A stretch of DNA of 62,484 nucleotides, the filler included, from Dugesia japonica (lineage: Eukaryota), in NCBI GenBank assembly GCA_001938525.1. It is 6 parts of 6 records of this genome, joined end to end, with 100 filler letters (N's around TTAATTAATTAA, not from the genome) between each part and the next. Parts side by side here need not be neighbours in the genome. Positions count along the whole stretch, not along the records: positions 53,580 to 62,484 come from MQRL01348731.1; 5 more parts are not named here. One strand, 5' to 3'. The number at the start of each line of letters is the position of its first letter. The stretch's first letter is position 1. The notes under the pieces were generated by a model. It searched no databases. It was not told the DNA's origin and worked only from the letters and a program-made list of their open reading frames with translations. This document shows positions 901 to 62,484 of the stretch, piece after piece. The translations under genes were made by a program, and so were the position numbers.

Positions 901-1692
901 AAAATAATATATAAAAAACAAATGAAAAGACTAATCAAAACATAGAATTTATTATTGATAAAACATGTATAATCACAGTAATTATGTACAGTTGTTTAAA
1001 TCTAGATCTTAATTGTAAATTAGATTTTAATAGCACAAATTAATTAGTTTAAATAATAAAATTAATTTCCTGTAAATGTGCTTCTTTTCATAATAATTAA
1101 GTTATATCAATAAGATAAATCATTAAGTTCAATTAAAATCATTAAATTAAGTAAAAATTATTAAGTTACAATTTGATAATATTATGTAAAGTTTAAATCA
1201 TTACAATAAAAATTGAAATAAATTATAATCAAATTAAAATAAAATCATTAATTTAAAATTATTAAAATATTAAAATTATTAAAGAAAGTCATTAAATTAA
1301 AATTTAATCTTAATAAATCTAACCTCTTTCAAAAAATTCCTTTGTCATATTTTCATAAAATTCCTAAGACACATCATTTTTTTTCATTCTAAAATATAAA
1401 TCAATAACAATAAATTAATTAAACTTATCATGTTAAAGCTTCTCGTCATGTTTGTTGAAATATTTTTCTTTGAATTCATTCTGTTTATATCTAAAATTAA
1501 AAAAAATCAATAAAATATATTAACAAATAAATATTCACTTATTTTATAGTAGATTTTTCAAGGTCATCTACCATTTTATTTATTTAGCACAGTTAAACAA
1601 ATATACATATCTATATATAATAATTTCCATATAATAATACTAATTAATTACCAGTCATTTTTAATTTAATACACTTAAACAAAAATTAATTT

Positions 1693-1978
1693 GAAGTCTG
1701 CCCGGTCGAAAGTTGCTATAGAAGTTACCTTGATCTACTTTCATTTCACCTTGACATACATTCATTTGACCTTGAAATAATACACTAATTAGAATTGTGT
1801 ATACTGTACCACTGATCTTGAAAATTTCGACCAATCAGATTCGAGTATACAATACCACTGATCTTGAAATAATTTGACTTTGAAAATTTTGACTAATCGA
1901 AATCGAGTATACTGTACTAGTCACCGTGAAATAATTTAACCTTGCTTTGCGAGTACAGTGCATTAGGAACTACCTTCT
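1693..1978. repeat. Terminal repeat block rich in (TG)ACCTTGA and GAGTATAC motifs, homologous to 44360-44652
   Basis: Both copies start AAGTCTGCCCG, contain repeated (T)GACCTTGA, CCAATCAGA and CGAGTATACT motifs, and end in a degenerate ...CTAC..CT terminus. Confidence 0.6.
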
Positions 1979-2854
1979 TAAAAATTAAAATTCAATAATG
2001 AATTCAAATAAATGAATAAACAAGTCCCAATTACAGAATATTCAGTTATATCTGTTTTGATTAGAATAAAAAAGCAAATACTGAAATTCTCCGCGGTATT
2101 TATACCAGGATAAAATACCGCAACGCTAAAATTAATAGAAAAGTTTTGAGAATTTTTATTATTAAAAGTAACGTTAACACAATAATAATTTTCTAAATTA
2201 TATTTTTGATTATAAAATTTTTGTAATAATATTTACGAAGATTTAAATTGAATAAAATTTATAATATTATTTTTTTATTGTTTATTTACCTAATTAAATG
2301 GAAACACCTTAATTTGAAATTTCTATAAAATTAGTAAAAGTAATATAAATTCAATTTACACATACAAAATTGTAAAATCAAGTAATACCCAAATTACATA
2401 ATTATAATAACACAATAGAATCAAATAGTTCAATAATATTGTCAAGCACAGAATATTGTTATTTTTGTACAGGATCATTATAAGGTCCATGAGAAATTGG
2501 TTTGTTTTGGATTGTCTAGTTTGATTTGAAAGTGACTGATTATTTGATCTGATTGTTCCCTGTCGAGATCATGATTGTTTGGAATTGAAAATGATTGACC
2601 ATTTGTTGTTATGTTTATGCTATATGTTAAGTGGATTTATTGTTATGCTTGGGTGACTGCTAGTGACTGAATGATTATTGTTTTATAGTGCATGTTGTGT
2701 AAACACAACATTTTTGCACATAAAATATTTAATAAACATAATGAAACAAGTACAGCAAAATACATCAAATGAATCATAGAAATCCATTAAACCTATCACA
2801 TTTGATAAATACAATGAACGAAATGCACCATATTCCAATAAAAACTCATTAATA

Positions 2855-3120
2855 TATAAACCCTTAGAAAATTAATATAAACCTTATAGATACCCTATAA
2901 AAACAATCAAAAATCCAATAAACTCTATACTTATTCTATAGACACAATATAGAAACCCTATGGAAACCTGTTAAACTCTATAAATACAATATAAATCCAT
3001 ATAAATTTCTATGGAAACACAATGAGACACTATAGAAACCCTAGAGAAACCCGAAAAATCTCTACAGAAACCTAACGAAACCTAAATTATCATAAAACCA
3101 TATAAATCATAGAAAATAAA
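2855..3120. repeat. Degenerate short-period tandem repeat (CTATAGAAACCC-like units)
   Basis: Recurrent aaaccc(t)ta(t)agaaa units with strong A/C strand bias. Confidence 0.55.
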
Positions 3121-3629
3121 GCTAGCTTGGAAAATAAAGTTTTTACTTTAGTTTCTAAATAAAACTAATTTTATTATGTAATAAACTGGTAAATTTTAAT
3201 TTATTATCACACAGTTCATGAGCAATACTAATGCAACTCATTGTATAACTAAGAACTCATTATTTAAAAAGAACTAAGAATCTTTTTTATAAGAATTGTA
3301 AATAAATAATAAATAAGTTCAATAAATTTAGAATTTTATATATTGTAACATTATATATTTTAAATTAAAACTTTGAAACGCCATTTAAATATATATTTCT
3401 GTATTACATGTTTNNNNNNNNNNNNNNNNNNNNNNNNNNNNNNNNNNNNNNNNNNNNNNNNNNNNNNNNNNNNNNNNNNNNNNNNNNNNNNNNNNNNNNN
3501 NNNNNNNNNNNNNNNNNNNNNNNNNNNNNNNNNNNNNNNNNNNNNNNNNNNNNNNNNNNNNNNNNNNNNNNNNNNNNNNNNNNNNNNNNNNNNNNNNNNN
3601 NNNNNNNNNNNNNNNNNNNNNNNNNNNNN

Positions 3630-4575
3630 AACATTTGAGCTTTGCTATGTCTAATATACATTTTTTGTTCAATGATGAATGGTACAAACAAGTTGATAGA
3701 TTTACTATTGGTTCAACTCTTGCGCCTACTTTATTTTCTTTGTTTTGGACCAATATTGAGGAAAAGACTAATTTGTTTATTGTAAATTAGCCACTAGTGT
3801 ATAAACGCCATGTAGATGATATATTTCTGATTTTTAATAACCAAGTAGATATTGACCCATTCCTAAACTATATGAATTCGTTGCATANNNNNNNNNNNNN
3901 NNCTACAGAAATGGAATGTAAATCTAAACTTTCTTTCCTTGACTTATTAATAGAAAGAAAGTCCAAACATTATGAAATAGAGATTTATCACAAACCAATG
4001 GACACAGGCTTGTATAGATCTCCTAGTAGTTTTTGTGATTCTCGTTATAAGTATAATATGATTAATAGATTGTTGTAAAGATCGTGGACTCTTTCCTCTT
4101 CATATTTAAAGTCTTGTGCTAATATTCAAAATAAAAATGGTTATTGTAAATCAATTGTGCAGAAATTAAATCGTGAAACAATTTATAAGATCTTATATAA
4201 AAATAATGAAATTAAAGATGTCAATAATAATGATAATAAAAATTTAATTGTGAAAATATTATCAAATACCCAAATAAGATAGATAAGTTTAATTACTTAT
4301 TAACTCTTCCGTATTCAGAAGGATTTAAACAATTTAAGAATGGGTTATTAAAATATAGAAATGACTCTTGGAATTTTAAAATTGTTTCGCAATCTTTTAA
4401 AATCATAAATATGTTTAGTAATAAGTCTAAAACACCAATTCAATAGTGTTCTGATCTTGTTTATAAATAAAAATGTAGTGGATGTAATTCCACGTATACA
4501 TTGGAGAGACTTTCCGCCATCTCTGTACACGAATTCAAGAACATCGTCGAGTTGGTAGTGGAAGTAATATATTAA
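3630..4575 (+). mobile_element. Penelope-like retroelement remnant (RT + GIY-YIG endonuclease)
   Basis: RT motifs FLFNDEWYKQVDRFTIGSTLAPTL, YKRHVDDIF, LSFLDLLI and IYHKPMDTGLY. GIY-YIG motif LVYK*KCSGCNSTYIGETFRHLCTRIQEH. Stops present. Confidence 0.9.
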
Positions 4576-56599: not shown

Positions 56600-58130
56600 T
56601 TGCATCATGAACCTTACACCACCAACAGATACAATTTAAGTTAGTGGAGGCTATGGAAAGCTAATCCAGTTCTTATCTATGAGACACAGTTCGAATCGCT
56701 AGGAATGCTTAGTTGCAGCATGGACAAGATCATTGCTAGCCTATTTTGAACGACTGAATTGTACGGAATAATCGTTCCTTGCAGACGTGAGCCCGATCCC
56801 TCCAGTTTACGGGAACTATATAAACAGTCACAACTAGCCGTGGTTGGAAGAAATAAAAATCTTACGAATGCTGGACCAAATGCTTTTATATATACCTCGC
56901 AGTTTAATAAGAATAAAATTTTCATAATATTTGCTGCAGTCAAACTTTCCTAACGGAATGTTAAAGTTCCTGAACTCGAATGTGAAAATATAAGAAATAT
57001 AAGTTTGATACTCGTGGATTTTCTGCCAAGAATACAGTAGAGTTAGAAATATTTTCCAGATCCCTAGCAGCTTTATCAAACATTTCCATTGGTGTTTAAA
57101 ATTGTTCACGATTAAAATCGACCCCAAGATAGCGATAAGAGTCTTTATTCAACAGTTTTGGGACAGTCTCTTCTTTACTAAACATTTGAGCAAGCTCACC
57201 ATTTATAGGCCAAGGTAAATATGCGCACTTGCTTGGCCGAAAATCTAGATTTGACCGATCTGCGAATGTCACAGCGACATCAACCATATCCTGAAGGCTA
57301 GACTTGGAAAAGGCTACACATGCTAAATCATCTGCATATACCAAACAATATATAGAATGTCCAGTAGACAGAAGACAGTCTTGTCTAACTCTACTTATGT
57401 TGTTATATTAGTATAAATTTTTTGCAGATTTAATAGCTAGAGCAGTCAAAATATAGAGTCTGATTAATCTAGTAGACTTTTCACTGACACTCATTCGAGA
57501 CAACAGACTTACATTGAGCTCAATCGTTATAATACCGAAGGCATTAGCTATATCTAAAATTGCGATATGTAAGTAAACTTGACATATCTGTTTTTCTCAT
57601 CAAGTAGACATCGAAGTAAAAAATTGTGCCTAGAACAGTCTTCTGATTCACCAGCACCTTTCTGGATACCATGTAAAAATGTCGACTTCTTAGCCCAATT
57701 CAAAAGTTGAGATGCAAGACGTACCACAATAGCTTTTACAGACAGTCAAACAAGGCTATTCGTCTCCAAGACAAGGCAAGATGATAAGAACCAATCTTGC
57801 TAGGATTTGGTATCATTAAAGTTGAATACACTTTCCAACTGTCTAGTGTAATGCTGAAATCAATAATCTTTTTAAAATGACTGTAAATTATTTAAAATTT
57901 GAATCAACAAACCTTAGATTCTGATACGTAATATTCTTTATACTGGGAGAAGAAACATAAAGACTGAAAAGTATATTTTGGATTACAACGATTTCAGAGC
58001 AAACAAATTCAAAACTATCACTTCTAGTTTCCAATATTGGACATAAATTCCAGTTAGACAATGGTCTAACCTCGACTTTAGATTGAAAATAGGCTTCAAG
58101 GTCTTCATGAAAAGGAGAACAGACAGCTGT
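56600..58130 (-). mobile_element. Non-LTR retrotransposon RT remnant, RLE-type (R2/NeSL/Utopia-like)
   Basis: WRRIAL, IQKG, HNFLL, LDIANAFG, VRQDCLLS, YADDL, FRPSKC and YRYLG motifs in order. Boundaries approximate. Confidence 0.8.
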
Positions 58131-60199: not shown

Positions 60200-61420
60200 T
60201 GGTACCACTAAACCTCTAAATTGATTGCATTTGAAATTTTATTAAATTAAAAGCTTCGATAAAAATGTTGTTTTTTTACATTTTATTTCTTTTTTGGTAG
60301 TTATTAAAATTTTAAATTCTTGTTTACTTCAGGAATTTAATTTTTTGATTGAATGCATTTTTGGTTGTTTGCATAAAAATTGTTTGCATAAAAATTGTTT
60401 TCATTTTATTGAAATTTTATTGAATAATTTTTATTTAATTTAAATTAAATTTTTTTAAGCTTAATTTAATTATTATAATTATTATAAACTACATTGATTT
60501 TGGGTTTATCATCTTTGATCAATATTTCTTAATGTTATTTTCTATGGAGTGTAAAAATGTGGTTTGTTCCTAATGTTTTCAATGTTATATGATGTTTTCC
60601 TGGTAAACGTTTTTTGTCTGTGTTGAAGATTTCACTTTATTAATGTTTAAGATTTTCCGTAACTCTTGTTTAGATTGTTCTGCATGTTTCTTCTATATGC
60701 GTGTTTTTACTTCACGTTGCTTCATAAGTGATCCTTTTCTCATTACATATATTTCTACCATCACAAATGTACCCCAAAGGCTTTATCTTGGTTTCTGTAA
60801 TTGGATGCTTAAAAGTGCTTGCGTTTTGAATAAAAGTATTAGATTATGTTTGAGTTTATGTTTTGCATGATTTGGCTACATTTTACGTTAATAGAAAATA
60901 TAATTTGATTTAATTATTGTATTTGTTTTTAGTTTGATTTGTTTAAATTATGTTTTCAAGTCTAAATATTTAGATATAATTTAGAAATGAAATTGACTTC
61001 CTTCATGTTGATAAAAAATAAATTCTTAAATAATAGCTACCCAAATAAAAATATATCTAGTTCATTAGTTACAGATTTCAAACACATTCTTTAAATGTTT
61101 CTTTCACCTTAGTGTGTATAATATTTTCAGTAATGAATACTTCAATTGATCTATGAAATAAAGTTGCAATTAAGAGAAAATGTTTTCGATGATTCAATAG
61201 ACATCTTTTTTGGAATAGTAATTGAAAAGTATTTTATCTATCTTTTCTTAAAGAAAAGTTAATTTTTTTATCTACCAGTTCTCTTAGGATATTTTACTAA
61301 TTAAATTCTTTCTAAGCATTTGCATTGCATTTCTTATTACTTGTGACTAATAAGTGACCTCAAAATTACCGATTGCTTACTAATATTGGGAGCCATGGTG
61401 AGACCGTTTGTGATTCAAAC
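60200..61420 (-). mobile_element. Penelope-like element: RT to GIY-YIG plus downstream terminal repeat
   Basis: NGLTMAPNIS (RT), HIEETCRTI*TRVTE (GIY-YIG) and DDKPKIN (C-terminus), followed by the AAAAGCTTCGAT terminal-repeat family with a decayed hammerhead at ~60311-60333. Confidence 0.7.
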
Positions 61421-61658
61421 TCGCGTGTTATTGAACTACATCTTAACAGGACCTGATTATATAAATTTATGTAGATATAAATTACTTTTAAATCAGGAAT
61501 ATGAAATTCCAAATGTTAAATTTTTCTATTTTTCATTTAGAAATGATAATCATACATTCGATTTGGATTGGTTTACTAACTTTTATATATAGTATGTTTT
61601 TTATTAATTTAGTTTTAATAATTTTAATTAAAAATTCGTTTCATATTTCATAAATGTA

Positions 61659-61932
61659 AGTAGATAGAAATGAGGAATTTAGCGCAAAACATTTAACAGT
61701 TGCCATAACAACCGATACAAATTTCTTACGTAACGATAACAGAACTATTTTATAAACGTCACATAATAATTTCATATTGATTACGCAATGGTTGTGTAAC
61801 TATAATGAAATTGTTCCCTATTGAATGCTAAATAATATCGTAATGATCTTGCAATGATCACGATACGATAAAGCAAGGCTAATCAAATGACAACCGCTAC
61901 CCGCCGCATTAGACTCCCTCTTTCTATCGACT
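61659..61932. mobile_element. 274-bp MITE with AGT...ACT termini and a 6-bp TSD
   Basis: Left AGTAGATAGAAATGAGGAATTTAGCGC; right (reverse complement) AGTCGATAGAAAGAGGGAGTCTAATGC; flanks AATGTA and GATGTA. Confidence 0.7.
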
Positions 61933-62484
61933 GATGTAACACCTTGTTAGTTATATTCAAGCTTTGTTTGATGATATATATGATGAATAGGATATCATTT
62001 TGCTTTTATTTTTTACATATTTTACAAAATGAAATCTTTGAATTTGGTTATTGTAATGTTAGATATTAGGTTTGGAATAAAACAATGGAATGTCAACCGA
62101 TAATGTTGGTTCGTGAAAAAATATGTTGTTAGAAAGCGTTGTATAGTCAATATTAAATTGTTTAAATTATAGAATTCTAAGATTATATGAGATTGGAGCA
62201 CATAGGAATATCCCCCATTAACTAGGCCGACATTTTTACAACAGTTAAAAAATTGATAAAATATATACACAGAAATTTCAATATGTTATTCTTAATCGAA
62301 TATTATAAATATACATATGGGGTGCGAAAGAAATTCGACAATAAAATAATTTTACAGTGAAATTAATTTTGATATTAATTTTAAGATTAATTTTTCTATA
62401 GTAATTCCAACAACCTTTAAATATAAAAATATGAAATAATTTCGTATCTTATTTAAAAAATGACCATTTATATATATATATATA

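Follow-up and report, generated by a model that had tools for sequence, protein, structure and literature searches.

The window, a stretch of 62,484 nucleotides of Dugesia japonica DNA, contains a 274-bp non-coding element with inverted ends and a putative 6-bp target-site duplication. A sequence-only reading took it for a miniature satellite mobilised by Polinton machinery. Is it a member of such an amplified family, and how did so short an element acquire Polinton-type ends?

A short element in a 6-bp duplication

The element occupies positions 61659–61932 (contig coordinates G000:C348731:8080-8353), in surrounding DNA with a GC content of about 27%. It starts with AGTAGATAG, and the opposite strand starts with AGTCGATAG. 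The features of the locus are as follows.

61653–61658, plus strand: left copy of the target-site duplication, AATGTA (from the sequence and a single AATGTA at the likely empty paralog L229)
61659–61932, no strand: 274-bp non-coding Polinton remnant, probably two outer ends head to head (from the end pattern and the profile of copies)
61659–61710, plus strand: left terminal inverted repeat, with a core of ~27 bp and weak similarity to ~50 bp (from arm comparison)
61720–61860, no strand: subterminal array, now decayed, of near-palindromes (TTACGTAA at 61726–61733 and relatives; from motif and profile comparison)
61881–61932, minus strand: right terminal inverted repeat (from arm comparison)
61933–61938, plus strand: right duplication copy, GATGTA, which reads AATGTA in the sister copy (from the sister copy and a run X5 contig)
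61214–62310, no strand: host low-copy duplicated region, a passive carrier of the element to other contigs (from flank sharing)

The inverted arms are identical at 17 of 25 ungapped positions, with weak similarity out to ~50 bp. By itself, this match is at chance level, ranking 10 among 83 inverted pairs in 2 kb. Strand folding gives z = -1.82, and 9 of 200 shuffles fold equally well. Since neither statistic separates the element from chance, we rejected both as sole proof of it. A 23-nt pattern built from the element ends, by comparison, has 258 matches in the genome versus none for the reversed control; a shorter 12-nt end pattern has 1004 versus 472, an excess of only about twofold. It is therefore the end family (258 versus 0) that establishes the element as real, with the length, ends and flanks originally described for it. 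No ORF of 50 aa or more lies within the element, and one 52-aa stop-to-stop frame straddles its left edge.

The flanks AATGTA (left) and GATGTA (right) are identical at five of six positions. The sister copy L002, which is 96% identical, has AATGTA at its right flank, and at 61933 a contig of run X5 likewise has A. The original duplication is AATGTA on both sides. In addition, paralog L229 has the left flank, a single AATGTA, and then 16 of 24 right-flank bases (background 5e-5, for a short match at a site chosen by eye); judged from this alignment, L229 is likely the empty paralogous site. Run contigs reach across the left junction in X7 and across the right one in X5. Those of the four runs compared show no joint that skips the element; their coverage has holes, so that this proves nothing. 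The relatives described below also have duplications at 6 bp and not at 4, 5, 7 or 8 bp, and the 6-bp target duplication proposed at the outset is thus borne out by the sister copy, the likely empty site and the relatives.

Elsewhere in the window, positions 57096–57745 (minus strand) contain fragments that, by eye, resemble a decayed non-LTR reverse transcriptase.

The ends lead into Polinton genes

The genome contains at least 97 matches to pPolB genes (91 of 7453 candidates scored), and one contig, C529426 (L113), carries a DJR capsid, an rve integrase, an A32 ATPase and pPolB together. Ends of the window type, or related to it, are found on several contigs with such genes. L104 begins with the end type of the window element and aligns colinearly with pPolB contigs across most of 3.9 kb; its encoded protein is 63% identical to the C529426 capsid, and its capsid match by itself is below the Pfam cut-off. 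L316 shares both its end and its motif array with the window element, and the C-terminus of pPolB lies 832–1577 bp inward (52–64% aa). L054 and L108 represent one insertion, whose end leads into pPolB pieces. The pPolB contigs L132 and L133 carry related ends, starting with the full (AGT)2 motif. Since several contigs continue from this terminus into genes for Polinton polymerase or capsid, the Polinton link holds: on these sequence comparisons, the ends of the window element are Polinton ends, as had been proposed.

Of 39 pPolB loci scanned, not one had both ends, so that the complete parent and its own duplication were not seen, and no such end was found on the integrase-bearing contig. The assembly is fragmented into 648,594 contigs; open ends may therefore hide closed elements. 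In L062, an ORF that follows the end seemed capsid-like by eye but was rejected, as it matches neither Pfam nor local Polinton ORFs.

Several further features of these Polintons were observed. Motifs like TTACGTAA are abundant in the subterminal array of the window end type (L316, L006, L017, L179, L291 and window positions 61720–61860), with nine in 400 bp of L316 versus none in 858 bp of flank; they resemble PAR/C/EBP bZIP sites. The long ends of the closest group (L038, L045–L047, L053, L056, L095, L102, L105, L110 and L111) carry an inverted copy of terminal bases 12–31 about 380–440 bp inside, repeated at ~840 bp in two of them, which could fold back onto the end. In L113 (G000:C529426), positions 3130–4497 contain a Polinton integrase ORF in which a phospholipase A2-like domain (PF08398) precedes rve.

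Probably two ends head to head, inserted once

When the profile of element copies is compared with long Polinton-type ends, positions 1–~200 match on one strand and ~110–270 match on the other, indicating a head-to-head join of two outer Polinton ends. The arms likely join within the 61720–61860 array; the copy is too old for the exact junction to be located.

Closed relatives exist, with lengths of 174 bp (L059; duplication GTTAAT), 267 bp (L184; TTCAAA), 385 bp (AAGAAA) and 683 bp (GAAATG/GAAATT), the last two being the only closed loci among the 30 nearest. They are not colinear with the window element, and their lengths and junctions differ. In L184, the join falls on a 16-bp near-palindrome that occurs in each arm; among its 29 best relatives, of which 19 are long enough to reveal closure, none is closed. 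Other AGTAG end types are present in further elements of 267–282 bp (L204, L190, L205 and L203); L204 is flanked by a perfect CCCGGA duplication, and the pPolB contig L131 also carries its end.

Genome searches with the window element gave three other matches and three more contigs. The copies include L002, with the right flank, and L004 and three identical contigs (L154–L157), with flanks. Every copy found shares its flanks, indicating a single old insertion copied along with host DNA. A search with the most diverged paralog gave no copy with new flanks, besides one 60-bp interior match. The searches were word-based with only the best candidates scored, and diverged independent insertions could escape them. 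The element is 66–71% identical to its paralogs and the flanks are 76–83% identical. The lower conservation of the element gives no sign of constraint, and the insertion predates the host duplication. The many colinear ~270-bp copies at independent sites, with distinct duplications, that an amplified MITE-sized satellite entails were not found in these searches, and the proposal is not supported for this element.

One paralog (L157, 1102–1330) has acquired a different repeat, of ~230 bp, at the element's right tip. On C607396, a pPolB fragment is present downstream of the paralogous copy, but it starts past an assembly branch point within another repeat, and we did not accept it as a link.

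A related family that likely moved as a miniature

A loose two-ended pattern (259–289 bp) is not enriched in the genome (47 matches versus 64 in the control). When 46 rows of this pattern were re-read, six had long matching arms, with four perfect 6-bp duplications, one with one mismatch and one with two; the other 40, which lack such arms, had no perfect duplication and four with one mismatch.

A search with one of these six, L219 (G000:C583246:2927-3210), the seed of a family that we term family B, gave 1369 first-look candidates, of which the best 40 were scored. Family B, whose other members are among L232–L288, comprises 56 loci, 41 of them closed, at 31 independent sites (three closures, L277, L288 and L268, being doubtful), and its members are mostly 260–330 bp long. 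Duplications of 6 bp are perfect at 12 of the 31 sites and within one mismatch at 21, compared with six, three, zero and one within one mismatch for lengths of 4, 5, 7 and 8 bp, respectively. A cross-pair control gave one perfect and 16 within one mismatch among 930. The interior is a one-directional tandem, and interior markers are present at 25, 25 and 30 of the 31 sites in one common orientation. Since a common interior at independent sites could hardly be repeated by independent deletions, family B likely moved as a miniature. The copies are 68–90% alike (pairwise median 82%), giving no sign of present activity. The predicted ~270-bp copies with distinct 6-bp duplications were found in this related family and not for the window element.

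The ~36-bp end of family B adjoins the C-terminus of pPolB at L288, L271 and L128, with flanks that are all different, and its first 30 bases have the AGTAG start and a CGAGAACAG block in common with the window end group. The shared ends and the duplication length suggest that family B was likely spread in trans by Polinton integrase acting on ~36-bp ends. Just outside the family-B-type Polinton end of L128 (G000:C601344), positions 1665–3141 contain a disrupted gene that resembles viral fusion glycoproteins (PF24664, E 4e-14).

Cut-and-paste MITEs are short non-coding elements with inverted ends and fixed-length duplications at many sites. Family B is like them in all these respects, its colinear copies with a shared interior lying at independent sites with distinct duplications, but the match of its ends is to Polintons rather than to a small transposase element. 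Unlike MITEs, the window element is unamplified.

Origin of the window element

We consider it probable that the window element, two outer Polinton ends head to head, was inserted once, long ago, and was thereafter a passenger of host duplication, and that family B moved separately as a miniature. Alternatively, the element could belong to an old family of MITEs that Polinton proteins mobilised in trans, its other insertions having diverged past our search. This view gains from family B, which shows that such families exist in this genome, from the age of the element (~70% identity to paralogs) and from the word-based search. However, two diverged versions of the query recovered only copies that share flanks, and the two closed loci among the 30 nearest ends (385 and 683 bp) are non-colinear; we regard this alternative as unlikely. 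The short two-ended forms might also have arisen as fold-back artefacts of the assembly or library where repeats are palindromic, given a short-read assembly, a join on a palindrome in L184, and a whole stretch that no single run contig spans. This is highly improbable, as the same short form is present in paralogs diverged to ~70%, the flanks are direct and not inverted repeats, and run contigs cover each junction.

Among other cut-and-paste elements, a hAT group and IS3EU are candidates with 6-bp duplications. That the AGTAG ends and the duplication come from another such superfamily, with the adjacent Polinton genes present by coincidence or nesting, is very doubtful. Although a complete autonomous element with both ends was not seen, three end types lead inward to pPolB or capsid at independent sites, and L132 and L133 begin with the published (AGT)2 Maverick motif (PMC8097293). 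Ginger1 and Ginger2 have TGT ends and 4-bp duplications (PMC2836005), as against AGT ends and 6 bp in the window element.

In the head-to-head account that we prefer, the 6-bp duplication would have been made by a Polinton integrase of retroviral type, and the interior may have been lost through a join between short palindromes of the kind that make up the subterminal arrays. Within inverted arms, a palindrome is equivalent to a direct repeat, so that the head-to-head form would result either from deletion following integration or from a template switch in the course of replication. We lean slightly towards loss of the interior after a full-length Polinton had integrated at the site. Loss during replication, followed by integration of the defective short genome in trans, is nearly as likely. 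After insertion, the window element would have been copied solely as a passenger of duplicated host DNA, whereas family B would have spread by Polinton integrase acting in trans on short ends.

The elements had also been expected to define minimal cis requirements for replication. This does not follow, since integrase and host gap repair need no Polinton polymerase: MITE-like spread is possible via excision, insertion and host gap repair, and the elements therefore bound the needs of integration and not those of replication.

Comparison with known Polintons

Polinton ends carry an (AG)3 or (AGT)2 motif; for Mavericks, (AGT)2 is described together with 6-bp duplications (PMC8097293), and Polintons are described as being 15–25 kb long (PMC6431247). 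The window element resembles them in its AG-first ends (AG...CT), short AGT repeat, 6-bp duplication, and ends common to local pPolB/capsid elements (PMC8097293, PMC6431247, PMC3014272). It differs in being 274 bp long, without the pPolB and integrase genes of an autonomous Polinton or any ORF inside, and in its AGTAGA start, which matches (AGT)2 at five of six positions.

Non-autonomous Polintons are on record. Polinton-1N1_DR appears in its source by name alone (PMC9341505), Polinton-N1A_NV has a capsid gene (PMC11296320), Tlr1 is still gene-bearing (PMC5499653), and mobile insect polintons lack polB and keep other genes (bioRxiv 10.1101/2025.02.07.637071). They are alike in missing part or all of the machinery, so that they would need a helper. 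However, N1A_NV, Tlr1 and the insect elements carry genes, and the accessible text of these sources describes none as an amplified family of less than 400 bp. The TIR-only remnants of C. elegans, single 744-bp TIRs tied to rearrangements (bioRxiv 10.1101/2024.01.15.575659), are likewise geneless Polinton ends left behind, but the window element has two ends joined within one 6-bp duplication. The available portion of a lizard survey notes no non-autonomous Polinton copies (PMC3014272), and that of a flatworm genome preprint reports Maverick expansion with no mention of MITEs (10.64898/2025.12.11.693146). A MITE-sized amplified Polinton family was not found in the literature searched; one may be on record in Repbase, Dfam or the founding Polinton papers.

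Implications

There has been little direct evidence on Polinton integration and copying so far. Taken by itself, the window element, being a fossil, contributes little. Family B, which is MITE-sized and has both Polinton ends and 6-bp duplications, suggests that the integrase acts in trans on short ends, and its conserved terminal bases show which end positions matter. Short AGTAG-ended repeats in such genomes should count as Polinton-derived.

More speculatively, the one-off head-to-head miniatures, the window element among them, could be fossil copy-back defective genomes, formed by a template switch of the polymerase at a near-end palindrome and integrated by a helper integrase; together with family B, they would make up a full satellite life cycle. 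We consider this reading possible but not probable. If it is true, the genome records the path of a virus-like element from a defective genome to an amplified MITE that needs only a ~36-bp end.
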